DNA from: a virus
DNA length: 64,000 bases
Direction: 5' to 3' (one strand)
Virus record (IMG/VR): IMGVR_UViG_3300049893_003686
The stretch's first letter is position 1, and each line of letters begins with the position of its first letter. Of the stretch, positions 14,140 through 42,346 are shown piece by piece. The position numbers and the translations under genes are program-made. The notes beneath the pieces are model-generated. The model was not told the DNA's origin and ran no database searches. It saw nothing but the letters and a program-made list of their open reading frames with translations.

Positions 14140-14592
14140 ATGAAGAAGGCATATATCTACGCACCGTTACCACAAGCAGTTCATCATTATTTTCCCAAAG
14201 ATCGAGGAGGAGATGATGACAGCGAACCACACTGTACGATCTTATATGTTGGCGAGATACAAGATTCACTAATACCTAAGTTAAAACAGATTCTTGATGA
14301 AGCTACAAGTGATATGCCACCTATCAAATGTAGTTTTGGACAATTAAAATCATTTCCGGGCGGGGAATACGGAGTGCCGTGGTACGTAGAGATAGATGCG
14401 GATCAAGCACTAGAGCAATTACATAAATCATTATGGAAGAACCTAGAAAACGCAGGTATTGATGTACAGCACAGGTTTAAAAACTATAAGCCACACGCTA
14501 CACTCAAATATCTTCCTGAAGGTAAGAAATATTCCGGAGATATTCCTGTAGGCGACTTCAGTATTTCTGTGGTAGAATTAGATATCCAATAA
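14140..14592 (+). CDS. 2H phosphoesterase superfamily protein (LigT/2'-5' RNA ligase-like or Acb1-like)
   Basis: Two H-x-T-x motifs (HCTI near aa 31 and HATL near aa 118) in a 150-aa protein. Confidence 0.65.
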   Translation: MKKAYIYAPLPQAVHHYFPKDRGGDDDSEPHCTILYVGEIQDSLIPKLKQILDEATSDMPPIKCSFGQLKSFPGGEYGVPWYVEIDADQALEQLHKSLWKNLENAGIDVQHRFKNYKPHATLKYLPEGKKYSGDIPVGDFSISVVELDIQ

Positions 14593-17278: not shown

Positions 17279-18409
17279 ATGAAATTCCCTATTATCGAGC
17301 ACACAATTTTACTTACAATAGCAGGCTCTAGGAGTTACGGTATGCACAAAAGTGACTCCGATATAGACCTAAAAGGGATAGCCATCCCTCCTATAGATTC
17401 CTATATTGGAGTTTTACCAAATTTCGAACAAGTAGAGTCATCAGAAGCAATGATGGTATATTATCCTCTACTATCGAATGATGAGAAAGATATTTCAGAT
17501 AAATATAAGCTTGAAGGGGTTATATATGATTTGCGTAAATTCATACGACTGGCATCTGGTTCAAATCCCAATATCTTAGATGTATTATTTTGCGATGATG
17601 AGCACGTCAGGTTCTCATCAAAGGCAGGAGATATCATAAGGGCTAGCAGAGATCTATTCATATCTGCACAGGCTAAGCATACATATTCTGGTTATGCAAC
17701 GGCGCAATTTAAGCGCATTAAGACTCATAGGGGATATCTGCTAAATGCTCCAAAGACAGAGCCAGACAGGAGTGAGTTCGGTCTATCAAAGGACCACTGC
17801 ATTCCACGTGCCCAGGTAGAGGCATCTTTATCAGAGATTAATAAGAAACTTGATGAGTGGGAATTAGATCTTAGCTCTATAGATTCTGAGTCTGACAGAA
17901 TGTCGATATTAAATAATATTGCACAAGTACTATCAGAAATAATGTCAACAACTGACTCTAAATGGAAGAGCTCCGCTAGAAACATCGGCTATGGCGATAA
18001 CCTTATTGAAATTCTAGACAAGGAGCGTAGATTTAGACAGGCTAAGAACGAATGGGATAAATATCAATATTGGAAGAAGGGGCGAAACTCAGCACGAGCG
18101 AAACTAGAAGAAAAATACGGGTATGATACCAAGCACGCTTCTCACTTAGTTAGATTAATGAGGATGTGTTATGAGATTTTAGTAGATGGCAAGGTCAATG
18201 TCAATCGCAAGAAAATAGATGCCGATGAATTAGTTGCGATTCGAGATGGCTCATGGAGCTACGATAAGCTAGAGGAATTCTTTATAACGATGGATAATAA
18301 ATGCAGCGAGCTGTATAATAGTAAGTCATATAGCATTCCACATAGGGTAGATATGAGTGCGATAAATGCATTGTGCGTACAACTCATCTCCGATAAGTAC
18401 AAAATGTGA
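17279..18409 (+). CDS. Pol-beta-superfamily nucleotidyltransferase, RlaP-like (RNA-repair-associated family)
   Basis: The N-terminal GSRSYGMHKSDSDIDLKG matches the G-S-x-x-Y-G..S-D-x-D minimal NTase motif of that family, as I recall it. Confidence 0.6.
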   Translation: MKFPIIEHTILLTIAGSRSYGMHKSDSDIDLKGIAIPPIDSYIGVLPNFEQVESSEAMMVYYPLLSNDEKDISDKYKLEGVIYDLRKFIRLASGSNPNILDVLFCDDEHVRFSSKAGDIIRASRDLFISAQAKHTYSGYATAQFKRIKTHRGYLLNAPKTEPDRSEFGLSKDHCIPRAQVEASLSEINKKLDEWELDLSSIDSESDRMSILNNIAQVLSEIMSTTDSKWKSSARNIGYGDNLIEILDKERRFRQAKNEWDKYQYWKKGRNSARAKLEEKYGYDTKHASHLVRLMRMCYEILVDGKVNVNRKKIDADELVAIRDGSWSYDKLEEFFITMDNKCSELYNSKSYSIPHRVDMSAINALCVQLISDKYKM

Positions 18410-25567: not shown

Positions 25568-25643
25568 GCGCCTGTAGCTCAGCGGATAGAGTACTTGTCT
25601 TCTAAATAAGGTGTCGTAGGTTCGAATCCTACCAGGCGCGCCA
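25568..25643 (+). tRNA. tRNA-Arg (anticodon TCT), CCA encoded
   Basis: Cloverleaf read by hand. Acceptor GCGCCTG/CAGGCGC. D arm GCTC-AGCGGATA-GAGT. Anticodon arm CTTGT-CTTCTAA-ATAAG. Variable loop GTGTC. T arm GTAGG-TTCGAAT-CCTAC. Discriminator G followed by CCA. Confidence 0.9.
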
Positions 25644-25708: not shown

Positions 25709-25792
25709 GGGCCAGTAGACGCGCTCCGCTCATAACGGAGTAAGGGTAATTTGGTTCTGAAAATGTGGGTTCAAGTCCCACCTGGCCCACCA
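25709..25792 (+). tRNA. Atypical tRNA-like element, copy 1 (CAU anticodon loop, no canonical D arm, 24-nt variable region, CCA encoded)
   Basis: Acceptor GGGCCAG/CTGGCCC. Hairpin CTCCG-CTCATAA-CGGAG. T arm GTGGG-TTCAAGT-CCCAC. Discriminator A followed by CCA. Only 8 nt (TAGACGCG) lie in the D-arm position. Identical to 42249..42332. Confidence 0.5.
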
Positions 25793-25936
25793 TTTACACG
25801 TACTCAATTCCTAATCTGACGTACGGTAATAGAATGATTAGGATCTCACTCTTCGGGATTTAAGAGCAACCCTTTAGCCTTAGGCGTTGTAGTACGGAGA
25901 GAAAAGGCCATCTTCTTTTAAGGAGAGCGTCAGCTA

Positions 25937-26560
25937 ATGCTTAGAGCTGAAGGTAAGCTGCCTAGAGATGTATACGTAGCTTGTTCTGGCGGCGTAGACA
26001 GTATGGCAGTGCTTGCGTTTTTAATGCGCCGAGAAGTTAAGCCACAAGTAGTCTACTTTAATCATAGGACTGATCATTCAGAAAAAGCAGAAGAACATGT
26101 ACGTACATTCTGCACTAAGCACGCCCTCAATCTTACCATAGGAACTATTCTTCGTGATCGCCTTAGCCGTGAGTCTAAAGAGGAATTTTGGCGAAACGAG
26201 AGATATAAATTCCTGCACGGACTATCTCTACCAGTAATTACAGCGCATAACTTAGACGATTGTATTGAAACATGGATCTTCTCTTCATTGCATGGAGAAG
26301 GAAAAATGATTCCATACAGAAATCGAAATGTAATTAGACCATTTAGACAAACACATAAGGCAGAGTTTATCAGATGGTGCACGAAGAATAACATCCCATG
26401 GATAGAGGACGAGTCAAATAAGAATATATTATTTGCACGCAATAGAATCAGACATGCACTTATGCCAGAAGTTCTAAAAATCAATCCTGGAATTTCTAAA
26501 GTAATTAGAAAGAAAATCTTGGCAGAAAGTGATATGCATAGGCTTTCCCCGCCACTCTAA
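25937..26560 (+). CDS. tilS: tRNA(Ile)-lysidine synthetase-like PP-loop ATPase (N-terminal catalytic domain only)
   Basis: PP-loop ACSGGVDSMAV, then ..VYFNHRTDHSEKAEEHVRTFC..L.. as in TilS. AAGGAGAG SD. At 207 aa it lacks the long TilS C-terminal domains. Confidence 0.7.
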   Translation: MLRAEGKLPRDVYVACSGGVDSMAVLAFLMRREVKPQVVYFNHRTDHSEKAEEHVRTFCTKHALNLTIGTILRDRLSRESKEEFWRNERYKFLHGLSLPVITAHNLDDCIETWIFSSLHGEGKMIPYRNRNVIRPFRQTHKAEFIRWCTKNNIPWIEDESNKNILFARNRIRHALMPEVLKINPGISKVIRKKILAESDMHRLSPPL

Positions 26561-26572
26561 AGAAGGATAATT

Positions 26573-27049
26573 ATGTACTATAACCATATGGCCTTTGCCG
26601 AACGTGTTGCTCGCAAATTTAGCAATGAAGATAGGCATCTTGTTGCCGCACTGCAGATTCGGGGAGGTAATATAGTCAATTATGGGATTAACCGACTTCA
26701 GTATAAAAGAGGCAGTAGCTATTTCGACTGTAGTATTCATGCAGAGGTAGACCTCGCGAGAAAAAGTGGATTCTCGCTAAATGGAGATAAAATCTGCATA
26801 TACCGGTTCAATCGAGCCCAAGAAACAAATGACTATAGAGACAGTAAGCCATGTCCTTTATGCGTAAGGGTCTTATTCCAATCTGGAGCAGGCAAGGTAT
26901 ATTATTCTTTAAACAACAAGGTTCTTAGTAGCAAGGTACACTCTCTTCCCATGCTGGCAGTGGATCCAATCATGTTTACCAAGCAGTATATTCCAAAATA
27001 CAGTACCGAAAGTACAAGGCATATGGATTTTGATGGTTACCTCATTTAG
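26573..27049 (+). CDS. CDA-fold (cytidine/deoxycytidylate-type) zinc deaminase, specificity unknown
   Basis: HAE (..CSIHAEVD..) and PCxxC (..SKPCPLC..) zinc-binding motifs with the expected spacing. Confidence 0.6.
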   Translation: MYYNHMAFAERVARKFSNEDRHLVAALQIRGGNIVNYGINRLQYKRGSSYFDCSIHAEVDLARKSGFSLNGDKICIYRFNRAQETNDYRDSKPCPLCVRVLFQSGAGKVYYSLNNKVLSSKVHSLPMLAVDPIMFTKQYIPKYSTESTRHMDFDGYLI

Positions 27050-27709: not shown

Positions 27710-28075
27710 ATGAGTAATAGTAAGTTCCATAAATTAAAGAAGAGACTGAAATTTCGAGCTGTAAAAGCCGGAATGGCATGTGATGTATCAACAGAATTTC
27801 TACGGTTTATATGGAATGCTGACACTAAATGTCAGATATGCAGTGTAAGTTTTGTATTAGATATGAACAGCGCGTCATCTAAATCAATAGACAGATTTAA
27901 TTCAGAACTTGGATACACTAAGGATAATGTGCATGTCATGTGTAGAAGATGCAATTCAATTAAATCAGTATTTGATCGTGACGGCCTATCTGGGCTGAGA
28001 ACGTACCAGCTTCGTAATCCAAGAATGCCAGTAGATAATTTAATTAAATGGATTACTAAAAATAAGAAGGATTAA
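27710..28075 (+). CDS. HNH/Endo-VII-like zinc-finger nuclease family protein
   Basis: CQIC..SIDRFNSELGYTKDNVHVMCRRCNSIK follows the CxxC..D-R-x-x..GY..N..CxxCN pattern seen in phage HNH-type proteins. Confidence 0.45.
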   Translation: MSNSKFHKLKKRLKFRAVKAGMACDVSTEFLRFIWNADTKCQICSVSFVLDMNSASSKSIDRFNSELGYTKDNVHVMCRRCNSIKSVFDRDGLSGLRTYQLRNPRMPVDNLIKWITKNKKD

Positions 28076-28076
28076 T

Positions 28077-28430
28077 ATGCTTTTGATGTTTGACCTCTCA
28101 GGTAATCGTGTTGCTGAATGGAGTCTGGGGAAAAAGCTAGTTTTTCCAAAAACCATAGATGCGGTAGACATTACGGCTATATGTACCGAGGGATTGGAGT
28201 TAGAATTTCTAGCATCAATATTAGAAAATTTAGTATATCCTAAAAATTATAGCACTGTTTGGTGGTACGGTGCAGACGCAAAGACAGTTGCTTCTGTAAT
28301 GGAATCCTACCATTCCTTGGAAAAAGATAGCAGGGATTTTTTACAACGTAAGTTGAAAATTGATTCAGCAAAGAAAAAGGTTGGCGTCGCATTAGACAAG
28401 ATAAAGGATCTTACATTCCCTCAATCCTGA
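28077..28430 (+). CDS. Hypothetical protein
   Basis: 117-aa ORF starting 1 nt after the upstream stop. Confidence 0.55.
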   Translation: MLLMFDLSGNRVAEWSLGKKLVFPKTIDAVDITAICTEGLELEFLASILENLVYPKNYSTVWWYGADAKTVASVMESYHSLEKDSRDFLQRKLKIDSAKKKVGVALDKIKDLTFPQS

Positions 28431-28510
28431 GAGAATTAATCTAGATATAAGGTCACATTAACTATAACTATAGCGTCATGCTGGCGTATATAGGAATAAT
28501 CGGAGAAAAG

Positions 28511-30802
28511 ATGAAGAAATATATTTTCGCAACGCTACTGCTCGCAACTACAGCGGCAGCATCAAATAGCGATAAATCTCATCATGAAAAGGTGGAGATT
28601 TGTCATAAGGATCATCATGAAATTAGTGTCGACGAGCATGCTGTCGAGGCGCATATTGATCACGGCGATTGTCTCGGGACATGTCCATGCGCCCCATTGC
28701 CAGAATGCCAATCTGATGCTGATTGTACTAACGATCTATTCTGTGATGGCAACGAATCATGCCTCAATGGAAGCTGTGTGGCAGGAGAGTCTCCGTGTGA
28801 GCACAGCTTATCATGTGACGAAGTGGAAGACCTATGTGTGCAACAGCCAGATTGCATTACCGATAGCGATTGTGACGACGGAGTATTTTGTAATAATCAA
28901 GAATTATGTTTAAATGGCTCCTGTGTTTCTTTTGGAGATAGTCCATGCCCAGACTACATTTGTGTAGAAAAGTATGCCATATGCGTATTGCCACCAGAGT
29001 GTCATGTAGATGACGATTGTACGAATGGACTATTTTGCGACGGGCACGAATTATGTTCAAATGGAGCATGCGTATCCAATGTACTTCCATGCCCTGAAAC
29101 AGAACAGTGTGACGAAGAATCTGATGCTTGTTTTAATGCAGGTGAGGGTGAAGGAGAAGGCGAGGGAGAAGGTGAGGGTGAAGGAGAAGGCGAGGGAGAA
29201 GGTGAGGGTGAAGGAGAAGGCGAGGGAGAAGGTGAGGGTGAAGGAGAAGGCGAGGGAGAAGGTGAAGGCGAGGGTGAAGGTGCCGAGAAAACAAACTTAT
29301 TTGTCTCAGGGTCAGGGATTTTTTCATGCTCTGAGTCATCATCTCCAGACCTGTTTATACTTGCACTATTCTTGCCAGCACTGCTAATATCACAAAAGCG
29401 TAGGGCACTAGTAGCAACCTTAGTAATTGGACTATTTTCATTCTCTGCTTCTGCAGAAGGATTAAATCGTGTAGGTGGCCCAACATCATTTAACGATTCC
29501 CCGCAAGCATCATCAGCGGATCTACTGCCTAACCTTACATTGCAGACTGGTCTAAACTTAGATTACTCGCATGCTCCATTGGTGCTCAGAGACGTAGCTT
29601 TTATTAAGCATAGTGATTTGGTCGAACACCAATTCTCAAGTAGCATCAATGCAGCAATGGGATTTCGCGATGTCGTGCAATTAGATCTAGCATTGCCCAT
29701 TTCAGTCGCAACAGGACAGGGTTTAAATTTGGATGGAACACCATCAGCTGGTCTTCAGGATATGACAGCTGGTGTTAGATTGCGGTTGACTGACAGCAAA
29801 GCACCATTACGCACTGCCCTTAGCCTTAAAGGTACGATGCCAACATCGCTATTGTCATTTAATGGAATGCCAACATTTGGAGAGGTATTCCCGACGCTTA
29901 CCCCAGGAGTCTTACTTACTGCCGGCAATGAGTTGGCATCAGTTACACTAAATACAGGATACACTATTCGTATTCCTAAAAATGTAGCGGATCTTCAAAT
30001 GGGACATACTGTAAATGCAGCTGTAGGTGGACAACTGTGCTTACTTAAAGATAGCTTGTGGTTAGTCGGAGATGTTGGCACAAGTCTATCAGCACAAGGC
30101 TTGTTTACAAATCGATTATTTATGCCAGTAGAGGCGACACTTGGCTTTAAAGGAAAGCACGGTCCTTTCTATGGAATGGTAGCCGCTGGCTCTGGGCTAT
30201 TGCCCGACGTTGGGACCCCTGATGTGCGCGTTTTGGCTTCATTAGGTCTTAATTTTGACTTTGCAACTAAGCAGAAAGCACGTACCACTAGCAAGTTAGT
30301 TACAGAGCATAATCCTCTGCCACCTCCACTTGATTCCGATGGCGATGGGATCCTTGATCAAGATGATAAGTGTCCAAATGATCCAGAGGATTTTGATGGA
30401 TTTGAGGATTCAGATGGGTGCCCAGAGCAAGAGTTAGTAGTAATAGAGTCAGAAAAAATCATATTGTTATCCCCAGTGTACTTTTTCTTTGACTCAGATC
30501 AAATTAAACCAGAAAGCTTTCAAGTATTGAATGATGTGGCAACTGTACTAAAAGAGCATACTGAGATTAAGCTATTGTCTATTGAGGGGCATGCCTCAGC
30601 AGAAGGTGAATTGGATTATAACCAAGCACTTAGTGAACGCCGAGCTTTGGCAATAGTAAAATTCCTCCAAAAGGCAGGAGTTGCTACAGAACGACTTGTT
30701 GCACTCGGGCATGGAGAGAATAATCCGGCTGAATCAAATAAGACAAAAGCTGGACGTGAAAAAAATCGCCGCGTAGAGTTTCGTATTCTAGAAAAGCAGT
30801 GA
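28511..30802 (+). CDS. Composite OmpA-family envelope protein: signal peptide, 4 Cys-rich repeats, (EG)n tract, internal sorting-signal-like/TM pair, putative beta-barrel region, thrombospondin type-3 (DxDxDG) repeats, OmpA C-terminal peptidoglycan-binding domain
   Basis: GGAGAAAAG SD precedes ATG 28511 (MKKYIFATLLLATTAAAS). Four repeats match DxDCxxxxFCxGxExCxNGxC. The TSP3 repeats read DSDGDGILDQDDKCPNDPEDFDGFEDSDGCPE. The OmpA_C domain reads ..IEGHASAEG..YNQALSERRA..NRRVEF. Confidence 0.85.
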   Translation: MKKYIFATLLLATTAAASNSDKSHHEKVEICHKDHHEISVDEHAVEAHIDHGDCLGTCPCAPLPECQSDADCTNDLFCDGNESCLNGSCVAGESPCEHSLSCDEVEDLCVQQPDCITDSDCDDGVFCNNQELCLNGSCVSFGDSPCPDYICVEKYAICVLPPECHVDDDCTNGLFCDGHELCSNGACVSNVLPCPETEQCDEESDACFNAGEGEGEGEGEGEGEGEGEGEGEGEGEGEGEGEGEGEGEGEGEGEGEGAEKTNLFVSGSGIFSCSESSSPDLFILALFLPALLISQKRRALVATLVIGLFSFSASAEGLNRVGGPTSFNDSPQASSADLLPNLTLQTGLNLDYSHAPLVLRDVAFIKHSDLVEHQFSSSINAAMGFRDVVQLDLALPISVATGQGLNLDGTPSAGLQDMTAGVRLRLTDSKAPLRTALSLKGTMPTSLLSFNGMPTFGEVFPTLTPGVLLTAGNELASVTLNTGYTIRIPKNVADLQMGHTVNAAVGGQLCLLKDSLWLVGDVGTSLSAQGLFTNRLFMPVEATLGFKGKHGPFYGMVAAGSGLLPDVGTPDVRVLASLGLNFDFATKQKARTTSKLVTEHNPLPPPLDSDGDGILDQDDKCPNDPEDFDGFEDSDGCPEQELVVIESEKIILLSPVYFFFDSDQIKPESFQVLNDVATVLKEHTEIKLLSIEGHASAEGELDYNQALSERRALAIVKFLQKAGVATERLVALGHGENNPAESNKTKAGREKNRRVEFRILEKQ
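29141..29282 (+). repeat. Perfect 30-bp tandem repeat x4 plus a partial copy, encoding (GE)n inside the OmpA-family gene
   Basis: GGTGAGGGTGAAGGAGAAGGCGAGGGAGAA occurs at 29141, 29171, 29201 and 29231 with no mismatch seen. A divergent partial copy spans 29261-29282. Confidence 0.95.
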
Positions 30803-30805
30803 TAT

Positions 30806-30835
30806 AAGGCGGCTCCATTATGGAGCTCGCGCCTT
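30806..30835 (+). terminator. Terminator-like bulged hairpin after the OmpA-family gene
   Basis: AAGGCG-GCTCCA-tta-TGGAGC-(tcg)-CGCCTT. There is no clear U-tract. Confidence 0.4.
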
Positions 30836-30857
30836 AAGCGCAGCTATAATAATATTT

Positions 30858-31628
30858 ATGAGCAGTAATGAACTTGGTTTGAAGATTAAAAGTTTATATG
30901 AAAATCGTACACGACTCTTGCTAGATCAAGATGAGTATATAATTATCAGAATTGATGGTAAGAATTTTTCAAGATATACTCGTAAGCTCAAAAAGCCATT
31001 CGATCAGGATCTTGCAGATGATTTCGACCAAACTGCTAAGATATTGTGCTCTCAAATCATGGGAGCACATATGGCATATACTCAAAGTGATGAGATAAGT
31101 ATTGTAGTTTCGAATTTTAGTTCTTCAGGTAAGGACATCTGGTTTAACGGAAATATACAAAAAATAGTTTCAGTATCATGTTCAATGGCAACAGCATCAT
31201 TTAATGATTCAAGAATAAAGCGAAGTGTTGATTATAAAGGTGGAATTTTTGATTCTAGGGTATTTACAATACCTGATCGCTCATCAGTATTAGAGTATTT
31301 AACCTGGAGACAAAAGGATGCAAGTAGAAATTCCATTTCCATGATTGCAAGAAGCGTAATGAGTAGTAAAGAAATGCATGGAATTTCTACTGGCAAAATA
31401 ATAGAGATTTTAAAAGATAGAGGAATAGACCTCAAAATATATAATCAAGGTCTATTGTATGGAAGAATTATTTTCAAAGAAAAATTTACAGTAACCGCTA
31501 CTCATAGTGAATACGGGATTGCTCAAAATTCTGATTCACTCAGAACAAGATGGGTAGCTAAGACAGCACCAAATTTCTCTAAAGAAGACATTTCCATAGA
31601 ATTGATTCCAGAAAGAAAGCTTTCTTGA
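30858..31628 (+). CDS. Thg1-like protein (tRNA-His guanylyltransferase / 3'-5' polymerase family, TLP)
   Basis: IIRIDGKNFSRYT..KPFDQDLADDF..MAYTQSDEISIV matches the Thg1 palm-domain blocks. Confidence 0.8.
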   Translation: MSSNELGLKIKSLYENRTRLLLDQDEYIIIRIDGKNFSRYTRKLKKPFDQDLADDFDQTAKILCSQIMGAHMAYTQSDEISIVVSNFSSSGKDIWFNGNIQKIVSVSCSMATASFNDSRIKRSVDYKGGIFDSRVFTIPDRSSVLEYLTWRQKDASRNSISMIARSVMSSKEMHGISTGKIIEILKDRGIDLKIYNQGLLYGRIIFKEKFTVTATHSEYGIAQNSDSLRTRWVAKTAPNFSKEDISIELIPERKLS

Positions 31629-31640
31629 TAGGAGCATAAT

Positions 31641-31973
31641 ATGAACGTATTTATAAGCACAAATTTCTATCTTTCAATGTTCCAAGATTTAGATAAGAAG
31701 GCAAAGATAGTGACATTTGACCAAATTGGTCTTAATATGGTAAAGCGATTTCTCGGACAAAATCCTATTAGTGTAAATATTGATTTACGTACAGCAACAG
31801 CGTTATCGGCAGCCCTATCTATTCCTATTATGGAATCATCAAGATTTGAAGTTGTAAAATCAGGCGATGCAGTCGTGATTGCCAAATATCATGGTCCAGA
31901 TTTGAAGACAACAAAAGACAAAGCTATGCCGCATAACGGCAGGTTTGACTTTTACCGTGCGGTTATCTCATGA
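31641..31973 (+). CDS. Hypothetical protein
   Basis: 110-aa ORF with a GGAG SD. Confidence 0.55.
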   Translation: MNVFISTNFYLSMFQDLDKKAKIVTFDQIGLNMVKRFLGQNPISVNIDLRTATALSAALSIPIMESSRFEVVKSGDAVVIAKYHGPDLKTTKDKAMPHNGRFDFYRAVIS

Positions 31974-32182
31974 AACTTATAGCACGATTAATCCTCTCAC
32001 CAGCCATACTTACGACATATGCTACATATGGAGCTGTATTAGCTGCACAATCTTGTAGAGATGATTGCACTCTCTTATCTAGTTTAAAGCACGGATTATC
32101 AGGTTGTGTAGCGGGATTTGCTCATGGATCCTATTATATTGTAAGCGGTCGTAAACTAAGTAACTCTTTATTTGATGAGTAA
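31970..32182 (+). CDS. Hypothetical membrane protein
   Basis: ATGA overlap with the upstream gene and two hydrophobic segments. Confidence 0.5.
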   Translation: MKLIARLILSPAILTTYATYGAVLAAQSCRDDCTLLSSLKHGLSGCVAGFAHGSYYIVSGRKLSNSLFDE

Positions 32183-32184
32183 AT

Positions 32185-33492
32185 ATGATTAAGATTCCGC
32201 TTTCAATCTCCCCGTCATATGTTAGCTGGTCATGGTGGCATGCAATGCGCGAATTATTCCAAAATGGAATGGACGCACATGAGCAAGGGCTGCTAATGAC
32301 CTATTCATTTGATGAGAAGTTGCGACAATTAGCGATCAAGAATGAGGGAGCTAGTTTACCTAGAGAATCGCTTGTTCTTGGAGTTACATCGAAGAGAAAT
32401 GCCGCTAATCAACGCGGAGAATTTGGAGAGGGCTATAAGCTTGCAATGGCAACACTGTGTCGCTTAGGAGCGCATGTTACTATTTTTAACGGTAAAGAGA
32501 TCTGGATTCCGGAACTAATTCACTCAGATGTATTTAATACAGAAGTTCTATCATTTACCATTAAACCTAGCGCTATAGAGCATTCGCTTACAATTGTAGT
32601 AACAGGGATTCCAGTAGCAGAGTGGGAATTAGCAAATGAAAGATTGCTATTCTTATATGATACCCAACCTAAAGCGCTATCATGCAATGATGGCTCTATT
32701 TTATTAGAGCCGCAATATGCCGGTAAATTATATGTAAAAGGCATTTTTGTAAATGACTTACCAGATAAACATAAATTTGGATATGATTTATCTAAAATTA
32801 AGCTAGATCGAGATAGGCAAATTCCAGACATATATGCGTTAAGATATGCTTTATGCTGCCTGCTAAAAAGAACTACAGAGCTTGGCTTGCTAAAGCCGCT
32901 AGAAGTACTGGAAATTCTAGAGGCAGAATCAGGTGAGATTAGAGCATTTGATGCAGATTTTGCGAAATCTCCAGTCTTTGAGAAAATTGTAGCAGAAGCA
33001 TTCGATACAAAATACGGGAAAGATGCCATCCCAGTTAAATCATTAGATGACAGTATCAGAGCCAAAGATTTTGCTCTAAAAGGAGTAATTGTTAACTCTA
33101 CCCTTCTAAGGATTCTTAATAATACCAAGGTATCATTAAATCAGATTGTGGAATCTATGGTTCTATTGCCAACTAAAATCTGGTCGGCAAATGAACTTTC
33201 TAATGAGGAGATTTCAAATTTAAAATGGGCTGTAGAGTTAACGGCAAGGGTAGAGCCAATATCACTAACTCAAATTTCTGTTGTAGATTTTATAGGCGAT
33301 AAATTATATGGAAAGTTTGAATTTAGTACAGAGCACGTATCTATCGCTAGAAGAATTTTATGCGACAAGGTAGAACTAATTGCCACCATGGTGCATGAAA
33401 TATGTCATCGCTATGGTCCAGATGGCGACCTGAGACACAGATATGCAGTAGAAAATAGGTTGTCAAAACTCATCCTACTAGGGCAGAACTAA
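32185..33492 (+). CDS. GHKL/sacsin-like ATPase-fold protein with a C-terminal HExxH motif
   Basis: The N-box ExxxNxxD appears as MRELFQNGMDAH. RGEFGEGYK resembles the GxFGxGF block. VHEICH lies near the C-terminus. Confidence 0.55.
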   Translation: MIKIPLSISPSYVSWSWWHAMRELFQNGMDAHEQGLLMTYSFDEKLRQLAIKNEGASLPRESLVLGVTSKRNAANQRGEFGEGYKLAMATLCRLGAHVTIFNGKEIWIPELIHSDVFNTEVLSFTIKPSAIEHSLTIVVTGIPVAEWELANERLLFLYDTQPKALSCNDGSILLEPQYAGKLYVKGIFVNDLPDKHKFGYDLSKIKLDRDRQIPDIYALRYALCCLLKRTTELGLLKPLEVLEILEAESGEIRAFDADFAKSPVFEKIVAEAFDTKYGKDAIPVKSLDDSIRAKDFALKGVIVNSTLLRILNNTKVSLNQIVESMVLLPTKIWSANELSNEEISNLKWAVELTARVEPISLTQISVVDFIGDKLYGKFEFSTEHVSIARRILCDKVELIATMVHEICHRYGPDGDLRHRYAVENRLSKLILLGQN

Positions 33493-33572
33493 TCTATTAG
33501 ATTAAATAATCTGCTTATAATTATAACACAATGTTAATTATAATATAACCAAGGATATCGGTATGCAGTTAA

Positions 33573-33938
33573 ATGAAAGACATAACAAGAGAATATATTA
33601 AGTTCTTTGCAATAGAGGAACAGATAAATAATATACTAGATGATTTCTTTGCAATGCTAATGAATTCATTAAATACATATGATGCTAATTATTTTCTCAG
33701 ACTGAGAGCTGGCTTTGATATGATCCTTCTATCTGAGAAAATTGGAGCAATTTTAGAAGATACATTTTCAGATGCAGAGTTACAGGAAATAATTGTTCTA
33801 TATAAGGCAAACCCTGTTCTGCTCAAAGTATTAGATGCCAGAGATGTTATATCATCCGCTCAGGCTAAAGCCGGCCAGGAAATGGTTGAAGAGGCGCTAT
33901 GCAAGGTACCTTTTGTCGTTTCTGATGGGAGCTGTTAA
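33573..33938 (+). CDS. Hypothetical protein
   Basis: 121-aa ORF. Confidence 0.55.
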   Translation: MKDITREYIKFFAIEEQINNILDDFFAMLMNSLNTYDANYFLRLRAGFDMILLSEKIGAILEDTFSDAELQEIIVLYKANPVLLKVLDARDVISSAQAKAGQEMVEEALCKVPFVVSDGSC

Positions 33939-34588
33939 TGAAAGTCGTATGTGTGAGTGATACACATAATTATGCTAATTATGTAGAAATTCCAGAAGGA
34001 GATGTGCTGGTTCATGCTGGAGATTTTACAATGAGCGGCTCACAAAAAGAATTTGAAGCATTCGCTAGATGGCTGGCCACTTTGACACACGAACATGTTA
34101 TTATAGTAGCCGGCAATCATGACTGGTTGGCTGAAAAAGACCCAGTACAAGCCAGGCAAATTATTGAAGGGGCCAGGCATAACATACATTATTTAGTAGA
34201 TCAATCTATAATACTTAGTGGAATTAAATTCTACGGATCGCCATATCAGCCAGAGTTTCGTCAATGGGCATTTAATTTACCAAGAGGAGATAGAAGTAAA
34301 GAGAAATGGGCTGAAATACCTGATGATACGAACGTGTTAATCACACATGGTCCACCAATTATGATTGGAGATCAGGTACATAGGAGTGATACTATTGTAG
34401 TTGAAAATGTTGGATGCAAAGATCTAGCGGAGAGGATAGCTACATTATCACAATTAAAAGCTCATATATATGGGCATATTCATGACGGATATGGACATAG
34501 GGTGATTAATAATATCTCCTATATTAATGCATCTGCGTTGAATGATAAATATCAGATAGCCCATAAACCAATTTTACTTAATCTATAG
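33938..34588 (+). CDS. Calcineurin-like metallophosphoesterase (second copy type, MPPED/239FB-like)
   Basis: SDTH, AGDF, GNHD, THGPP and GHIH motifs in order. Confidence 0.8.
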   Translation: MKVVCVSDTHNYANYVEIPEGDVLVHAGDFTMSGSQKEFEAFARWLATLTHEHVIIVAGNHDWLAEKDPVQARQIIEGARHNIHYLVDQSIILSGIKFYGSPYQPEFRQWAFNLPRGDRSKEKWAEIPDDTNVLITHGPPIMIGDQVHRSDTIVVENVGCKDLAERIATLSQLKAHIYGHIHDGYGHRVINNISYINASALNDKYQIAHKPILLNL

Positions 34589-34693
34589 CATGATAATTAA
34601 AATTAATAATATGAGCGGGAATCGCACTCTAATTTCTTTATATATGTAAAGATCTTATACATATATTGATATTAGCGATAGCAAATATAACAA

Positions 34694-34879
34694 ATGGGAG
34701 TATATAAAATGATTGATCTACATATCCAAGAAGCTCTTGAAGAGGTGCGCGACACTCTTTCGAATTATATGAGCGAAGCAGAGATGTTCGATGACACTGA
34801 TGAGCGATTGGCATCAGCAGAAGAAGTAATGCAGGAAGTGCTTGACAAGATTACGGCTTTAATTGAAGGTTCACTATGA
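34694..34879 (+). CDS. Hypothetical acidic protein
   Basis: 61-aa ORF with an alternative ATG at 34709. A 9-bp-stem hairpin lies upstream at ~34641-34668. Confidence 0.5.
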   Translation: MGVYKMIDLHIQEALEEVRDTLSNYMSEAEMFDDTDERLASAEEVMQEVLDKITALIEGSL

Positions 34880-35238
34880 AGGAATCGATAGAAATTTTCC
34901 AGATTAGAACTAAGTCTGGATTATTTAGCTCAGGTGGTATCAGACCGAGCTTTAAGAAAAAAGGAAAAGCATGGTATAAACTTACTGATGTGCTAAGACA
35001 TCTTGCTGAACTTGACGGTTTACGGCGAGAGGAAATATATAAAGGATGTGTTATTACCTCAAGAGTTTATGAGCTTAGGACACAGATAGATCAGCCAATA
35101 GAAAATGTACTGTCTGAATTAACAGAAAAAGAAAATAAGAAGATGCAGAAAAGAGAAGCTGATCGAAGGGCCTATATTGAGCGCGAAGAGTTAGCAGAAC
35201 TAGAGCGGCTAAAAGCCAAATATAGTAATGTGCGGTAA
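34876..35238 (+). CDS. Hypothetical protein
   Basis: ATGA overlap with the upstream gene; 120 aa. Confidence 0.6.
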   Translation: MKESIEIFQIRTKSGLFSSGGIRPSFKKKGKAWYKLTDVLRHLAELDGLRREEIYKGCVITSRVYELRTQIDQPIENVLSELTEKENKKMQKREADRRAYIEREELAELERLKAKYSNVR

Positions 35239-35288
35239 GTCATTGACCTTATTGGAAATAAAAGCTCCCTATTATAGCAGAATATTAT

Positions 35289-35450
35289 ATGGCAAAGAAA
35301 AATAAAAAGAAAAATAAGATACGTATTCCAAGAAAGCTTGCACGCTTAGCATGGGAGCGTAATGGGGCAGGTCAACATAAGGACAAGAAACATCAAAAAA
35401 ATATAGATGAATGTCGCAAGTGGACTGCAGATCAGGAGTTAGATAATTAA
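35289..35450 (+). CDS. Possible 53-aa highly basic protein
   Basis: Begins MAKKNKKKNKIRIPRKLARLAWERNG.. and is below the ORF-track cutoff. Confidence 0.35.
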   Translation: MAKKNKKKNKIRIPRKLARLAWERNGAGQHKDKKHQKNIDECRKWTADQELDN

Positions 35451-35527
35451 TTCCACCAGTCGACAGACATGCTCATATATTTTATTATCAACAATTCTCT
35501 AACAAATCTATATAATTTGGTGATAAT

Positions 35528-35929
35528 ATGATTGAATTTACATCTGCAGAAAATGGTGACCCTCAATATGATAATCGCAAATGGGTGGATAAAATGTTCA
35601 CCGATGCTAGTCAAAACGGACCTGTCCCACTAGATGTTGTCGTACATGATTGCAGTGATAAATCAAATTTAGGAACAGTAGAGCTAAATCCCAATAGTAT
35701 TAGCGTACTGGCAGATTTTGCTATAAATACTTCAAGTAAGAATATCCTAAAGGGAGAACACATACTTGTACTTGGAGGAAATCGTCAAGCAAGAGGTGGA
35801 CTGGGTAGACTGTGGGTGCCAGCAAGCCAGCTAGGAGATTTGATCAATCATCTACAGACACTAAAAGCATCTCTTGACCAGGACCTAACTAGATTAGTTG
35901 AGCAGATGCGCTCAGAGCGGGATGACTAG
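35528..35929 (+). CDS. Hypothetical protein
   Basis: 133-aa ORF. Confidence 0.6.
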   Translation: MIEFTSAENGDPQYDNRKWVDKMFTDASQNGPVPLDVVVHDCSDKSNLGTVELNPNSISVLADFAINTSSKNILKGEHILVLGGNRQARGGLGRLWVPASQLGDLINHLQTLKASLDQDLTRLVEQMRSERDD

Positions 35930-36039
35930 AACTAGCAAATAATTTGAAAGAAAAAAGTCACGCAGTACTTTACGTAGGGATGCTACCTGATTATATTACC
36001 AATAATCAGGCGCACATGCGCACCTTACGGAGGTATACT

Positions 36040-36435
36040 ATGCTGTTCAAGTACTTAACTTTGGATCCAATGGATAATTTGCTTGGGTCATTTGGGCGTA
36101 CATATAACTCAACCCACAATAAGCTACCAGCGAATATTTCATCTCAACAAGATAAATACGAAATAAGCATCCTTATTCCAGGATTTACCAAAGACGAGAT
36201 TAAGTTAACTGTAAGTGGTAATACTATGCTAATTTTAGCTGAAAAATCAACCATTTCTGATGTGGAATATTTCCATAAAGAATTTGCAATTGAAACAGTA
36301 GAGCGTAAAATATCATTACCTTCTTCAGTTAAGAAGGATGCCATTTCAGCATCATATAATGAAGGAATTCTGACCATTACACTCCCACACTCTAACTTAA
36401 GAAATGAGTCTTCCATTGAAATTCAAGTTTGCTAA
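36040..36435 (+). CDS. Hsp20/alpha-crystallin small heat-shock protein
   Basis: The alpha-crystallin domain reads ..ISILIPGFTKDEIKLTVSGNTMLILAEK..ISLPSSV..ISASYNEGILTITLP. A GGAGG SD precedes ATG 36040. Confidence 0.85.
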   Translation: MLFKYLTLDPMDNLLGSFGRTYNSTHNKLPANISSQQDKYEISILIPGFTKDEIKLTVSGNTMLILAEKSTISDVEYFHKEFAIETVERKISLPSSVKKDAISASYNEGILTITLPHSNLRNESSIEIQVC

Positions 36436-37300: not shown

Positions 37301-37320
37301 GCTTGCATATAATTTATGGG

Positions 37321-37484: not shown

Positions 37485-37506
37485 ATTAATAACTATATAC
37501 TGATAT

Positions 37507-37852: not shown

Positions 37853-39460
37853 ATGTCAATATTAAATACCGATGCAACTCAAACTCAGATATATGATAAT
37901 CGACAGATAAGAAATTCTGCTGGCGGCTATTCATTTGCAGTGGAAAATATGGATTATGTGCGGCGATTTCTAATTTTAGGAAGCGAGGGCGCGCAATATA
38001 GCCTACAGAATAGGCCAACTCTGTCGTTAGAGAACTGCCCGCATATATTGTTTATGCTAGATGCCGATGGCCAAAAAGTAGTAGAAGAGCTGGTCAAGGT
38101 ATCATTACAAGGCAGGGCGCCGAAGCAAGAGCCGACACTATTCGTATTAGCACTGGCAGCTAGACATAAGGATCTCGCTGTGCGTAAAGCCGCATTTGAT
38201 GCCGTGCAGAAGGTATGTCGCACAGCAACTATGCTATTTACCTTCTTAGATTTCTATAAAAAGTCCGGGGTGACATCTGGCTGGGGTCGCCTTATGCGAG
38301 ATGCGATATCGTCATGGTATAATAATAAGGATTTGCAATCTTTAATATATCAAGTTACGAAATATGGTAGTAGAAATGGGTGGTCGCATCAAGATGTGCT
38401 ACGTTTAGCACACACAAGGCCAGTAGATCAAGATCATTCTCTGTTATATAAGAAGATTACTTCTAAAAATAAGTTTAATATCGACATCAATATCGCTTCT
38501 GATAAGAATGCTTTTAATAAACTGCTAGCCATTGAAGCGGTGAAATTAGCAACAGAGGCAAAAAGTATCATCCCGTTAATTACAGAATTTAATTTAGTAC
38601 ATGAGCAGGTACCATCATCGCTAAAGCTTTGTCCCGATGTATGGGATGCATTGCTAGATAATATGCCATTAACTGCATTAATTCGTAATCTAGGAGCGAT
38701 GACATCCTCCGGGTTGCTTGTTAATGGAAATAGTGCTTCAAGAAGAGTGAGAGAAAAGCTATCTAATTTAGATACAATTAAGAGTGCAAGAATACATCCA
38801 TTTAATGTACTCACAGCATACAATACCTATGCAAAAGGAGTTGGTCAATTAGGTCACAAAAAATGGAACCCTAGTGAAGATATTATTGAAGCGCTAGATA
38901 GCCTATTCTATACCTCATTTACATTTATAGATCCATCGCATAAGCGCACACATCTCGCTATTGATGTATCGCGTTCGATGGATATGGGTACAATTCTTGG
39001 CTCGCCGGGGATGTCTCCTCGATTCGGCGCAGCCGCAATGTCAATGGCAACGCTGCGTTCTGAGGATAATGTTTCGATGAGCGCATTTTCGCATACATTA
39101 GTACCGCTACAATTTTCACCCAAAGATGATTTGCAGACAGTTATCAAGAAGATGAGGTCTATTAAAATGGGCGCCACAGATTGCGCCCTACCAATAACCA
39201 CTGCCATGCAGTCGAAGACCCCTATTGATACATTTGTTATATATACCGATAATGAAACTTGGTTCGGAAACGTTCACCCAATGGCAGCATTGCGCCAATA
39301 TCGAGATAGAATGGGAATTCCTGCCAGACTCATTGTCGTTGCAATGAAAGAAACAAACTTTACCATTGCAGATCCCGAAGATGCGGGTGCATTGGATGTA
39401 GTTGGATTTGATTCTGCCACTCCAGCTGTCATAGCAGAATTTTCACGCGGGGAGTTATAA
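37853..39460 (+). CDS. Ro60-related TROVE-domain protein with a C-terminal vWA domain
   Basis: The N-terminal NSAGGYSFAVENMDYVRRFLILGSEGAQY is characteristic of Ro/Rsr. The MIDAS DxSxS motif appears as IDVSRSM. 535 aa. Confidence 0.9.
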   Translation: MSILNTDATQTQIYDNRQIRNSAGGYSFAVENMDYVRRFLILGSEGAQYSLQNRPTLSLENCPHILFMLDADGQKVVEELVKVSLQGRAPKQEPTLFVLALAARHKDLAVRKAAFDAVQKVCRTATMLFTFLDFYKKSGVTSGWGRLMRDAISSWYNNKDLQSLIYQVTKYGSRNGWSHQDVLRLAHTRPVDQDHSLLYKKITSKNKFNIDINIASDKNAFNKLLAIEAVKLATEAKSIIPLITEFNLVHEQVPSSLKLCPDVWDALLDNMPLTALIRNLGAMTSSGLLVNGNSASRRVREKLSNLDTIKSARIHPFNVLTAYNTYAKGVGQLGHKKWNPSEDIIEALDSLFYTSFTFIDPSHKRTHLAIDVSRSMDMGTILGSPGMSPRFGAAAMSMATLRSEDNVSMSAFSHTLVPLQFSPKDDLQTVIKKMRSIKMGATDCALPITTAMQSKTPIDTFVIYTDNETWFGNVHPMAALRQYRDRMGIPARLIVVAMKETNFTIADPEDAGALDVVGFDSATPAVIAEFSRGEL

Positions 39461-39463
39461 ACC

Positions 39464-40762: not shown

Positions 40763-40764
40763 AT

Positions 40765-42248: not shown

Positions 42249-42332
42249 GGGCCAGTAGACGCGCTCCGCTCATAACGGAGTAAGGGTAATTTGGTTCTGA
42301 AAATGTGGGTTCAAGTCCCACCTGGCCCACCA
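42249..42332 (+). tRNA. Atypical tRNA-like element, copy 2 (identical to 25709..25792)
   Basis: The 84 nt are identical by eye, including the CCA. Identity continues for 3 nt (TTT) downstream, while the upstream flanks differ. Confidence 0.5.
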
Positions 42333-42346
42333 TTTTAACATCTTAG

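Follow-up and report, generated by a model that had tools for sequence, protein, structure and literature searches.

A bacterial-type Thg1-like protein gene, apparently intact, on a phage-like genome and its possible part in tRNA 5'-end upkeep

Introduction

What would a virus gain from an enzyme that extends the 5' end of a tRNA? The question is raised by an open reading frame at 30858..31628 (+ strand) in a 64,000-nucleotide stretch of DNA from an IMG/VR virus record, hereafter the window. The original prediction read this gene as a Thg1-like 3'-5' nucleotidyltransferase and joined it with several RNA-related genes of the window into a viral capacity for tRNA maintenance or repair. In vitro, all bacterial and archaeal Thg1-like proteins (TLPs) tested restore 5'-truncated tRNAs in a templated reaction, and the in vivo substrates of the bacterial ones are still unresolved (PMC6471195). 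In eukaryotic Thg1, N46 and the HINNLYN motif support an anticodon-dependent, non-templated G-1 addition; H154 of HINNLYN stacks on G36 of the GUG anticodon (PMC6471195). We asked which type of enzyme the window encodes, whether its active site is kept, and which role during infection fits the surrounding genes.

The TLP gene and its family

The gene starts with ATG at 30858, ends with a stop codon at 31626-31628 and encodes 256 aa; the strand opposite is packed with stops. Pfam PF04446 (Thg1) matches residues 14-139 with E 1.8e-26 and 93 bits (cut-off 29.2), and PHROG 4717, named 'tRNA-His guanylyltransferase', matches residues 4-247 with E 1.7e-65. The sequence of BtTLP (PDB 4kgk) is found with E 3.7e-42, while eukaryotic Thg1 structures reach only about 1e-9 (3otb, E 4.1e-09). 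By family, the product is a TLP and is predicted to be a templated 3'-5' nucleotidyltransferase. The Thg1 blocks on which the gene had been named, RIDGKNFSRYT and YTQSDEISIV, are confirmed at residues 31-41 and 74-83. Of the two profiles proposed as a check, PF04446 scored above its cut-off and PF14413 (Thg1 C-terminal domain) gave no match at E ≤ 1. We ascribe this miss to the sensitivity limit of the profile and not to loss of the domain, because the PHROG match extends to residue 247 and the structural alignments described below cover the C-terminal half. Membership in the Thg1 family is close to certain.

That the TLP gene and the DNA around it are no artefact of assembly follows from an independent Logan assembly (SRR35532387), which matches window 29236-41628 with 100% identity over 12,393 bp. 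The gene appears from its sequence to be intact and stand-alone. Between the stop codon of an upstream OmpA-like gene (30800-30802) and the TLP start lies an interrupted 12-bp hairpin (30806..30835, + strand) with a folding energy of -22.6 kcal/mol (z -2.5), which occurs once in the window. No U tract follows this hairpin and terminator prediction does not call it. No obvious Shine-Dalgarno sequence was seen upstream of the ATG.

Active site, enzyme type and predicted structure

The palm-like catalytic domain (30897..31274, + strand; residues 14-139 by the extent of the Pfam match) holds R31, D33, a KPFD loop (K46-D49), S77-D78-E79, K102 and R134. Alignment to BtTLP, with residue roles from PMC3701042, pairs R28, D30, K43, S74, D75, E76 and M158 of that enzyme with R31, D33, K46, S77, D78, E79 and M162, all of which are present. 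In hTHG1, the carboxylates D29, D76 and E77 bind metal, K44 and S75 serve activation, and R27, K96 and R133 serve transfer (PMC3701042, PMC4820378); the equivalents here are D33, D78 and E79, then K46 and S77, then R31, K102 and R134. A helix with the pattern W150-R151-Q-K-D154-A-S-R157-N158-S159...M162 (31305..31349, + strand) forms the putative nucleotide-transfer site and takes the place of the eukaryotic HINNLYN. Its R151, D154 and N158 correspond to R147, D150 and N154 of DdiThg1, which lie on a universally conserved helix facing the incoming NTP (PMC12632743). The mapped catalytic and helix residues, R151, D154 and N158 among them, are invariant in 49 of 49 aligned homologs, with the exception of K46 (Lys or Arg in 47/49) and M162. 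Elsewhere, of the 88 columns conserved at 85% or more, 24 differ in this protein from the family consensus, including PRR23-25 to DQD, D86 to N, and H38, present in 90% of relatives, to S. All the catalytic residues that could be mapped from BtTLP are in place, and the enzyme is predicted to be catalytically intact.

TLPs are told from eukaryotic Thg1 by a KPxD loop without the eukaryote-specific N46 (KPND in eukaryotes) and by the lack of HINNLYN (PMC12632743, PMC6471195). We looked for N46 and HINNLYN in this protein and found neither: the loop reads K46-P47-F48-D49, and D154-ASRNSISM stands where eukaryotes have HINNLYN. With the KPFD loop present and HINNLYN absent, the enzyme is a bacterial/archaeal-type TLP and not a eukaryotic-type Thg1.

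The AlphaFold2 model has a mean pLDDT of 92.4 and a pTM of 0.88. In a Foldseek search of the PDB, all 32 matches at E ≤ 1e-3 were Thg1 or TLP structures, the best being 4kgm (TM 0.80-0.90). Structural alignments to 4kgm and 4kgk span 239-249 columns with TM 0.72-0.90 and 34-36% identity. In the model, the protein shares the palm-like polymerase fold with the solved Thg1 and TLP structures. The bacterial/archaeal TLP type is further characterized by a homotetramer built as a dimer of dimers. Residues 203-236 (31464..31565, + strand; DSSP strands 203-218 and 221-236) are predicted to form a long β-hairpin, which carries the conserved R203, R229 and W232. In the archaeal MaTLP, a flexible β-hairpin measures the tRNA elbow and serves anticodon-independent tRNA binding (PMC4820378). 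The predicted hairpin is a likely candidate for the counterpart of the MaTLP elbow-measuring hairpin (R198-R215), and it is in keeping with the way in which TLPs bind tRNA independently of the anticodon.

Spread of phage TLPs and closest relatives

Database searches gave 6568 matches overall, and among viruses the TLP family occurs in 162 GenBank phage genomes and at least 546 IMG/VR contigs. The closest relative on record is 52% identical to the window's TLP, and every GenBank phage copy is less than 60% identical. An IMG/VR search with the single TLP protein gave no close relative, and no near-identical DNA to window 28000-40000 was found in GenBank phages. Phage Thg1-like genes are already common and annotated, and this one is an ordinary further member. 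By itself the finding is minor: it adds one divergent sequence to a family that is catalogued in phages and already predicted to act in RNA repair. We found no experimental or activity work on any phage TLP in the literature searched. The case is a reminder that no in vivo substrate is yet known for prokaryotic TLPs.

Nature of the element

The viral context named in the original prediction is borne out by phage-like gene content, though no virion or packaging hallmark (capsid, portal, terminase or tail gene) was found in the 64 kb. This lack would be expected if the TLP were a cellular gene carried by a plasmid or by part of a bacterial or archaeal chromosome, and so would the cell-like genes for ClpB, DHODH, IF3, FtsK, OmpA, Hsp20 and subtilase. 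TLPs are also found on at least 549 GTDB genome contigs, but none of these is more than 45% identical to the window's TLP. Against a cellular origin, the window encodes a T4 EndoV-like Pyr_excise protein, an HNH/EndoVII endonuclease, an ATP-dependent DNA ligase (phrog_114, E 6e-79), a NAMPT and NMNAT pair, an rIIA-like GHKL protein (phrog_6077), an AEP primase, Dam and dUTPase. Almost all genes lie on a single strand, and 20 of the 60 ORFs scanned have no Pfam match at the thresholds used. PHROG matches were obtained for the TLP, the rIIA-like GHKL protein, RlaP, Ro60, the DNA ligase, NAMPT and the HNH/EndoVII endonuclease. Searched against the phage collection, the window's genes find their best matches in huge phages: a 595-kb uncultured phage for the DNA ligase, and 635-642-kb uncultured phages together with PA5oct-like jumbo phages for TilS-N. 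Judged by gene content, that is, by the phage-typical accessory genes and the huge-phage best matches, the element is a large phage-like genome, probably that of a jumbo or huge phage with a diderm host. A cellular origin is very improbable.

RNA-related companion genes

The companions named in the original prediction are all in the window. An RlaP-family Pol-β nucleotidyltransferase is encoded at 17279..18409 (+ strand; PF10127 E 5.3e-20, phrog_388 E 8.5e-51). A 2H (LigT-like) 2',3'-cyclic phosphodiesterase lies at 14140..14592 (+ strand; PF13563 E 5.9e-13, PF02834 E 8.6e-09, TIGR02258 below cut-off), with a metallophosphoesterase gene upstream at 13558-14136. A Ro60/Rsr (TROVE + vWA) RNA-binding protein is found at 37853..39460 (+ strand; PF25045 E 5e-62, PF05731 E 4.3e-39, phrog_850), with NF041674 at 473 bits, under its cut-off. 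The window also encodes TilS-N, IF3 and a Macro protein.

These companion genes are scattered over about 25 kb at 6-16 kb from the TLP gene and do not form an operon. Directly around the TLP gene are genes for an OmpA-like protein, two small ORFs, an rIIA-like GHKL ATPase and a metallophosphoesterase. These flanks are shared only with a syntenic relative, L002, and are absent from the other TLP loci compared; no conserved operon partner of the TLP was found beyond L002. Within 10 kb of the TLP, RlaP homologs occur in 3 of 80 IMG/VR loci, and homologs of Ro60, 2H and TilS in none of the 80. No RNA ligase family (RtcB, Rnl1/Rnl2) matched among the 60 window ORFs scanned, the sole ligase being the DNA ligase (PF01068 + OB_2, phrog_114), and no polynucleotide kinase was found in the window. 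A gene for an RNA ligase may be located beyond the window. Near the Ro60 gene there was no Rfam match to a Y RNA and none of the YrlA type; what was seen there, just 5' of that gene, is a very stable hairpin (37407-37489).

tRNA genes and an odd tRNA-like RNA

A canonical tRNA-Arg(UCU) gene is present at 25568..25643 (+ strand; ARAGORN, Rfam 67.7 bits), with a perfectly paired acceptor stem. The two odd tRNA-like genes noted before are also present, as identical 87-nt copies with unrelated flanks: copy A at 25709..25795 (+ strand; Rfam tRNA 42.1 bits, missed by ARAGORN) and copy B at 42249..42335 (+ strand). The RNA has a CAU anticodon, a nearly absent D arm, a 24-nt variable region, a perfect 7-bp acceptor stem, A73 and an encoded CCA. 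The L002 version keeps 96% identity, against 62-70% at the DNA level for the genes; we conclude that the RNA is real and strongly constrained. An exact 24-mer of it is absent from IMG/VR and the metagenome collection, blastn against GenBank phages gave no match, and none of the other 85 loci (nearly all TLP loci) holds it with three or fewer mismatches. Nor does the odd tRNA occur upstream of TilS-N in the huge phage LR756502.1, which has ordinary tRNA arrays, or in PA5oct. As an item in its own right, this D-arm-less tRNA(CAU) beside the TilS-N gene is more unusual than the TLP.

The tRNA genes nearest to the TLP gene are 5 kb and 10.6 kb away. Acceptor stems are fully paired in the three tRNA or tRNA-like genes of the window and in the three of L002. 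Among 80 IMG/VR TLP loci, 20 have tRNA genes within 10 kb and 10 have arrays of four or more; a mismatch in the first three acceptor pairs is seen in 3 of these 132 neighboring tRNAs. A tRNA 5'-editing role of the DdiTLP3 kind was rejected on account of the perfectly paired stems. No tRNA-His gene was found in the window by ARAGORN or Rfam.

Discussion

The reading we favor, at somewhat better than even chances, is that an intact bacterial-type TLP on a phage-like genome serves general tRNA 5'-end upkeep. With a mechanism taken from its family, the enzyme would take hold of a tRNA with a recessed 5' end at its acceptor stem and elbow. ATP or GTP would activate the 5' phosphate through K46 and S77, with two Mg2+ held by D33 and D78. 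Nucleotides would then be added in the 3'-5' direction, with R31, K102, R134, R151, D154 and N158 in the addition step, each paired by Watson-Crick rules with its partner on the intact 3' strand, and addition would go on until the stem is whole again; on a tRNA-His with C73 the enzyme could restore G-1. Its role would be upkeep or quality control of the host and phage tRNA pool, as one of many translation-support genes with no dedicated operon. The activity, the substrates and the benefit to the phage are proposals, and some observations sit less well with them: the 24 altered columns among the 88 conserved ones, and the distance to the nearest tRNA genes.

As to the wider tRNA repair capacity, the parts exist and the idea has already been published as a prediction (PMC7824862). 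A specific functional link among them was not seen, since the genes lie 6-16 kb from the TLP gene, the flanks recur only in L002, no RNA ligase was found, the acceptor stems are paired and the described defenses cut elsewhere. We know of no process that yields 5'-recessed tRNAs during infection. In the papers covered, defenses that target tRNA cut the anticodon arm, the variable loop, the D loop or, within the acceptor stem, its 3' strand. It is this 3' strand that is nicked by Retron Eco2, and Schlafen takes off the anticodon loop. A defense that produces a 5'-truncated, 3'-intact tRNA was not found in the literature searched, and the proposal that the TLP might counter tRNA-cleaving host defenses gains no support on this point, as the described nucleases leave no such product.

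A dedicated function in tRNA-His maturation, in which G-1 is placed opposite C73 of a phage or host tRNA-His for charging by HisRS, is unlikely. TLPs do add G-1 to C73 tRNA-His in a templated manner, MaTLP has a second, anticodon-dependent mode (PMC4820378), phage genes in GenBank carry the name 'tRNA-His guanylyltransferase', and in 6 of the 80 IMG/VR loci a tRNA-His gene is found no more than 10 kb from the TLP. Yet tRNA-His makes up 8 of the 132 neighboring tRNAs (6%), which is no enrichment, and all eight encode G-1 opposite C73, so that RNase P can keep G-1 as in bacteria. For phage TLP neighborhoods, we accordingly rejected the premise that G-1 has to be added because the genes do not encode it. 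The protein also has S for H38 and lacks the HINNLYN whose histidine contacts G36. Action on RNAs other than tRNA (a Y-RNA-like partner of Ro60, small RNAs, or cap-like 5'-adenylylated or guanylylated ends) is improbable. DdiTLP4 is active on non-tRNA substrates (PMC6471195), the first reaction step gives an App- or Gpp-RNA intermediate (PMC8131947), and the window has both Ro60 and the stable hairpin upstream of its gene; the missing Y RNA match, the absence of Ro60 near the TLP in all 80 IMG/VR loci and the retained, predicted tRNA-binding hairpin speak against it.

We give still less weight, and consider it quite improbable, that the TLP matures or repairs the element's odd tRNA-like RNA, whose shape is perhaps mis-cut by host RNase P. 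The RNA is present in two identical copies, is conserved in L002 and occurs with the TLP in both known genomes of the lineage, but these genomes are syntenic relatives and the co-occurrence is not independent. Its perfect 7-bp stem, A73 and encoded CCA leave nothing to edit, which runs counter to the original suggestion of a maturation role. The RNA adjoins the genes for TilS-N and a deaminase, with the TLP 5 kb off, and was not found in the other loci and collections searched; the TLP family is more widespread than this RNA by a factor of hundreds. For binding, TLPs rely on the tRNA elbow, a feature that an RNA without a D arm may fail to form. Very improbable, too, is a broader version, in which the TLP would belong to a phage tRNA supply line around the duplicated D-arm-less tRNA(CAU), TilS-N and the deaminase, and would restore or set the 5' end of the odd RNA or of other phage tRNAs imprecisely processed by host RNase P. 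If true, it would mean that an in vivo substrate had for the first time been defined for a prokaryotic-type TLP. General tRNA 5'-end upkeep stays our preferred reading, and the negative results narrow the options: G-1 is encoded in neighboring tRNA-His, a 5'-mismatch signature is lacking, and no operon partner is conserved beyond L002. As a system for finding the substrate, a phage with a TLP along with its own tRNAs, TilS-N, IF3, RlaP, 2H and Ro60 would be reasonable.

Comparison with known systems

BtTLP (PDB 4KGK/4KGM) is the best match both in sequence and in structure, with 245 aa compared with 256 aa and the same catalytic residues, including M at the N161-equivalent position. It differs in being a bacterial protein, whereas the present TLP is on a phage-like element. 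H35 of BtTLP is replaced by S38, its P-E/R-R turn before strand 1 by DQD, and further conserved positions are altered. The eukaryotic Thg1 enzymes (human THG1 3OTB, yeast and Candida) have the same fold and carboxylate triad but show only about 20% identity in structural alignments. They carry KPND and HINNLYN; as both are missing here, non-templated G-1 addition opposite A73 is not expected. With the mitochondrial tRNA 5'-editing by Dictyostelium DdiTLP3, this TLP would share the chemistry, a templated refilling of a 5'-recessed acceptor stem. DdiTLP3 substrates are marked by mismatches encoded within acceptor pairs 1-3; this hallmark is missing from the window, from L002 and from 129 of the 132 tRNAs near phage TLPs.

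Among cultured phages, the PHROG 4717 proteins of Bacillus phages vB_BmeM-Goe8, Bcp1 and Bc431v3 and of Staphylococcus phage PMBT8 are 36-41% identical to the window's TLP. In these phages as in the window, the TLP gene has a large-phage setting of auxiliary genes and genes for nucleotide metabolism; the flanking genes are unlike those found here. For the predicted jumbo-phage RNA repair toolkit, Burroughs and Aravind (2016) are cited beside Iyer and colleagues. Iyer et al. (2021, PMC7824862) grouped phage Thg1 with RlaP, TROVE/Ro60, 2H and PTH2 as predicted RNA repair. Compared with that jumbo-phage toolkit, the parts are dispersed here, and neither an RtcB/Rnl ligase nor a polynucleotide kinase was found. 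The window shares with it Thg1, RlaP, TROVE/Ro60, 2H, Macro and tRNAs, PTH2 is present in L002, and beyond the toolkit the window adds TilS-N, IF3 and the odd tRNA(CAU).

Identity and distribution of the Thg1-like gene

The plus-strand open reading frame runs from an ATG at 30858 to a stop codon at 31626–31628 and encodes 256 amino acids; no reading frame lies opposite it on the other strand. The Thg1 family blocks RIDGKNFSRYT and YTQSDEISIV were located at residues 31 to 41 and 74 to 83. As the original prediction had anticipated, a Pfam search places the protein in PF04446 (Thg1) with E 1.8e-26 (93 bits; gathering score 29.2). Residues 4 to 247 match PHROG 4717 ("tRNA-His guanylyltransferase") at E 1.7e-65. 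The C-terminal Thg1 profile PF14413, proposed alongside PF04446, gave no match. An AlphaFold2 model built with 50 input sequences is confident (mean pLDDT 92.4, pTM 0.88). All of its significant Foldseek matches in the PDB (32/32) are Thg1 or Thg1-like protein (TLP) structures and the fold assignment therefore stands. The top matches are 4kgm/4kgk, the TLP of Bacillus thuringiensis (BtTLP), with TM of 0.72 to 0.90 across about 240 to 250 columns. An assembly from a separate run shows 100% identity across 12.4 kb surrounding the gene. It is almost certain that this gene encodes a TLP.

A search of the protein database at E ≤ 1e-5 yielded 6568 relatives, of which the closest has 52% identity and all others 48% or less. 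Relatives are encoded in 162 GenBank phage records, many labelled "tRNA-His guanylyltransferase", and also occur on viral contigs of IMG/VR (at least 546) and genome contigs of GTDB (at least 549). The protein is an ordinary phage-borne addition to a known family. Thg1 has been described as sporadic in jumbo phages and grouped with RlaP, CCA-adding enzyme, TROVE/Ro60, 2H phosphoesterases and PTH2, a group predicted to be an RNA-repair response to host attack on the translation apparatus (Iyer et al., 2021; PMC7824862). The RNA-repair interpretation of the original prediction is therefore already in print, as a prediction. No experimental study of phage TLPs was found in the literature, and a 2019 review regards the biological substrates of the bacterial and archaeal enzymes as unsettled (PMC6471195).

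Gene content of the window

Genes were assigned by Pfam, PHROG and NCBIfam, and nearly all are on the plus strand. In order of position, the window encodes a T4 EndoV-like glycosylase (3590), a Macro protein (4474), an NMNAT-like protein (6134), NAMPT (7215), DHODH (9817), an ATP-dependent DNA ligase (11040), an aminotransferase (12162), a metallophosphoesterase (13558), a 2H/LigT protein (14140), a full-length ClpB disaggregase (14628–17222), RlaP (17279), an AEP primase-like protein (20055), an M50 peptidase (20576), a trypsin-like peptidase (22095, minus strand), an SPFH protein (23114) and tRNA-Arg(UCU) (25568). An HNH/EndoVII protein (27710) and an OmpA-family protein (28478–30802) precede the TLP (30858–31628), and two small ORFs separate it from an rIIA-like GHKL ATPase (32185, phrog_6077). 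Further downstream are a second metallophosphoesterase (33938), an Hsp20 small heat-shock protein (35944–36435), a DHH protein (36404), Ro60/Rsr (37853), a VanY-like peptidase (40286, by Pfam), full-length IF3 (41162–41677; infC model 176.6 bits, cut-off 60) followed by an SspB-like ORF (41803–42201), an M48-like peptidase (42546), FtsK (43837), a subtilase (47849), a Prok-E2/JAB/ThiF (E1-like) cluster (55495–58239), a dUTPase (59001), a helicase (59456), an AAA ATPase (61354) and Dam (62775). The Ro60-like, 2H phosphoesterase, RlaP-like and odd tRNA-like companions named in the original prediction are each present. Neither a virion or packaging gene nor an RNA ligase was detected within the 64-kb window by the three collections.

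The best phage-collection match of the DNA ligase is from a 595-kb uncultured phage (50% identity); those of the TilS N-domain protein (see below) are from 635- to 642-kb uncultured phages and PA5oct-like jumbo phages. Our reading is that the window covers accessory genes of a jumbo or huge phage; support for its viral origin is strong, though short of conclusive within the window. The OmpA-family protein points tentatively to a diderm host. This 774-aa protein, encoded immediately upstream of the TLP, combines a signal-like N terminus with repeated Cys-rich modules and about 24 consecutive Gly-Glu dipeptides (repeat at 29140–29282), and it is kept at the same position (51% identity) in L002, a syntenic relative contig.

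Several other features were observed. Many of the best phage-collection matches of ClpB are short or unannotated records, and host contamination is possible for some. The Prok-E2/JAB/ThiF cluster resembles a ubiquitin-like conjugation system. Degenerate 9-bp tandem repeat arrays (GGGCTTCTA / TTCTGGGGC; up to 84 copies) occupy 1–950 and 2677–3466, where base composition is strongly skewed (AT skew -0.28) and the ORF list has few long entries. At 37407–37489, between the DHH gene and a small ORF ahead of the Ro60 gene, is a highly stable and almost perfect hairpin (14-bp GC-rich stem, CCACCCACAAGCAG/CUGCUUGUGGGUGG; z -4.7 for the region). It gave no match to the YrlA/Y RNA models and may act as a terminator or be an RNA bound by Ro60.

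A D-arm-less tRNA(CAU) beside TilS-N and deaminase genes

The odd tRNA-like gene occurs twice in the window, at 25709–25795 and, after the SspB-like ORF, at 42249–42335. The copies are identical across exactly 87 nt with unrelated flanks, and a third is found at L002:4454–4540. The RNA has a 7-bp acceptor stem and about 8 nt in place of the D arm; its anticodon loop is CUCAUAA (CAU) and its variable region, in which GG occurs, has 24 nt. The T arm is normal, the discriminator is A73 and CCA is encoded. Rfam scored the RNA as a tRNA at 42 bits and ARAGORN missed it. In L002 its sequence identity is 96%, against 62 to 70% for coding DNA, and the RNA clearly has a function. Searches of IMG/VR, GenBank phages, the metagenome collection and the other fetched loci gave no further copy.

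Directly downstream of the first copy are a 207-aa protein whose sole domain is the TilS N-terminal PP-loop (TilS-N; 25937–26560; TIGR02432, 123 bits, above cut-off) and a CDA-fold deaminase (26573–27049), an arrangement kept in L002 (4495–5699). This arrangement suggests that the phage makes a lysidine tRNA-Ile2 that serves AUA codons. A second cytidine/dCMP-type deaminase gene (43337–43825; PF00383, E 4.9e-25) follows the second copy at a distance of about 1 kb. L002:13652–13727 encodes a tRNA-Ile with anticodon AAU, and both elements carry deaminase genes; A at position 34 is normally expected to need deamination to inosine. The odd tRNA(CAU) with TilS-N and deaminase, and the phage-borne IF3, are more unusual items of the window than the TLP.

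Neighborhood of the TLP gene

The L002 TLP is 52% identical to the query, and the order OmpA-like protein, TLP, 107 aa, 69 aa, GHKL protein, 121 aa and metallophosphoesterase is kept, with an upstream block of odd tRNA, TilS-N and deaminase. L002 additionally encodes PTH2, YqeY, tRNA-Ile(AAU) and tRNA-Cys. In the fetched TLP loci other than L002, none of the window neighbors recurs beside the TLP. Homologs of window proteins were counted in 80 IMG/VR TLP loci with 10-kb flanks: NAMPT in 15, DNA ligase in 12, RlaP in three (directly adjacent in locus L098) and IF3 in two. Ro60, 2H and TilS homologs were found within 10 kb in 0/80. Since neighbors seldom recur, the TLP behaves as a stand-alone gene tending toward the nucleotide-metabolism/auxiliary part of large phage genomes. 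Of the original prediction, Thg1-family identity is borne out by PF04446, PHROG 4717, 4kgk and the fold; a specific link to the repair genes is not (Ro60/2H/TilS 0/80, RlaP 3/80).

On some MAG contigs (L014, a 397-kb GTDB "Bacteroidetes bacterium" contig, L022, L023 and L044), a same-strand array of four to nine tRNA genes lies within 1 to 3 kb after the TLP. This layout is typical of phages, and these contigs may therefore represent prophages or phage contigs that were assigned to MAG bins.

Possible roles of the TLP

Transfer RNA genes, including arrays of four or more, lie near the TLP in 20/80 IMG/VR and 10/80 GTDB loci, which mildly supports a tRNA-related role. The 5' editing of amoebal mitochondria needs tRNA genes mismatched in acceptor pairs 1 to 3, whereas the stems are perfect in the window tRNA-Arg and odd RNA and in all three L002 tRNAs. 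Such a mismatch occurs in 3/132 tRNAs near IMG/VR TLPs, one a CAU tRNA mismatched at 1:72, and an editing role is not supported. Maturation of the odd tRNA-like RNA, as originally proposed, is disfavored by its perfect stem, its TilS-N and deaminase neighbors and its restricted occurrence versus widespread TLPs.

In bacteria, the G-1 of tRNA-His is retained by RNase P. All eight tRNA-His genes within 10 kb of phage TLPs (L107, L121, L134, L157, L161 and L169) encode G-1, with ATG as the three bases upstream; by eye, seven have discriminator C73 and L169 is less clear. Neighboring tRNAs are not enriched for tRNA-His (8/132), and obligatory G-1 addition was rejected. With G-1 encoded in the DNA, the TLP could only be a back-up on tRNA-His. 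A TLP is templated by an intact 3' strand. The tRNA-directed defenses considered from the literature cut in the anticodon arm, variable loop, D loop or 3' strand of the acceptor stem, so there is no known cognate damage and the suggestion that the TLP counters such defenses found no backing.

We lean modestly toward templated 3'-5' refilling of tRNA 5' ends, serving tRNA upkeep in infection, as the best-supported mechanism. The TLP would refill recessed 5' ends, G-1 on tRNA-His with C73 among them, and would serve general tRNA upkeep during infection.

Active site and comparison with known enzymes

Residues were mapped to BtTLP by HMMER alignment. BtTLP R28, D30, K43, S74, D75, E76 and M158 correspond to query R31, D33, K46, S77, D78, E79 and M162; the roles of these BtTLP residues are metal binding, 5'-end activation and nucleotide transfer (Hyde et al., 2013; PMC3701042). 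Query K102 and R134 are the counterparts of ScThg1 K96 and R133. The query helix W150-R151-x-x-D154-x-x-R-N158 corresponds to the helix carrying R147, D150 and N154, which is conserved universally and in which D150 acts as a Watson-Crick checkpoint (PMC12632743). In the alignment with 49 homologs, no catalytic position varies except K46 (Lys or Arg in 47/49) and M162. As judged from the alignment, the active site is intact and the phage-borne TLP is probably active.

The query deviates from consensus at 24 of the 88 columns with at least 85% conservation, including PRR23-25 to DQD, H38 to S, D86 to N, T92 to K and W192 to L; no known catalytic residue is among them. By eye, some deviations (S38, L192 and L200) are shared with the closest relative (P0002) and others are query-only. 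By sequence it is a divergent family member.

A long beta-hairpin predicted at residues 203 to 236, with conserved R229 and W232, is likely the counterpart of the archaeal TLP hairpin, which gauges the acceptor stem and elbow independently of the anticodon (PMC4820378). The query matches BtTLP (4kgk) at E 3.7e-42 and eukaryotic Thg1 (human, yeast, Candida) at only 1e-9 to 1e-6. Its activation loop is KPFD, the TLP form, in contrast to eukaryotic KPND, and DASRNSISM stands in place of the eukaryote-specific HINNLYN motif.
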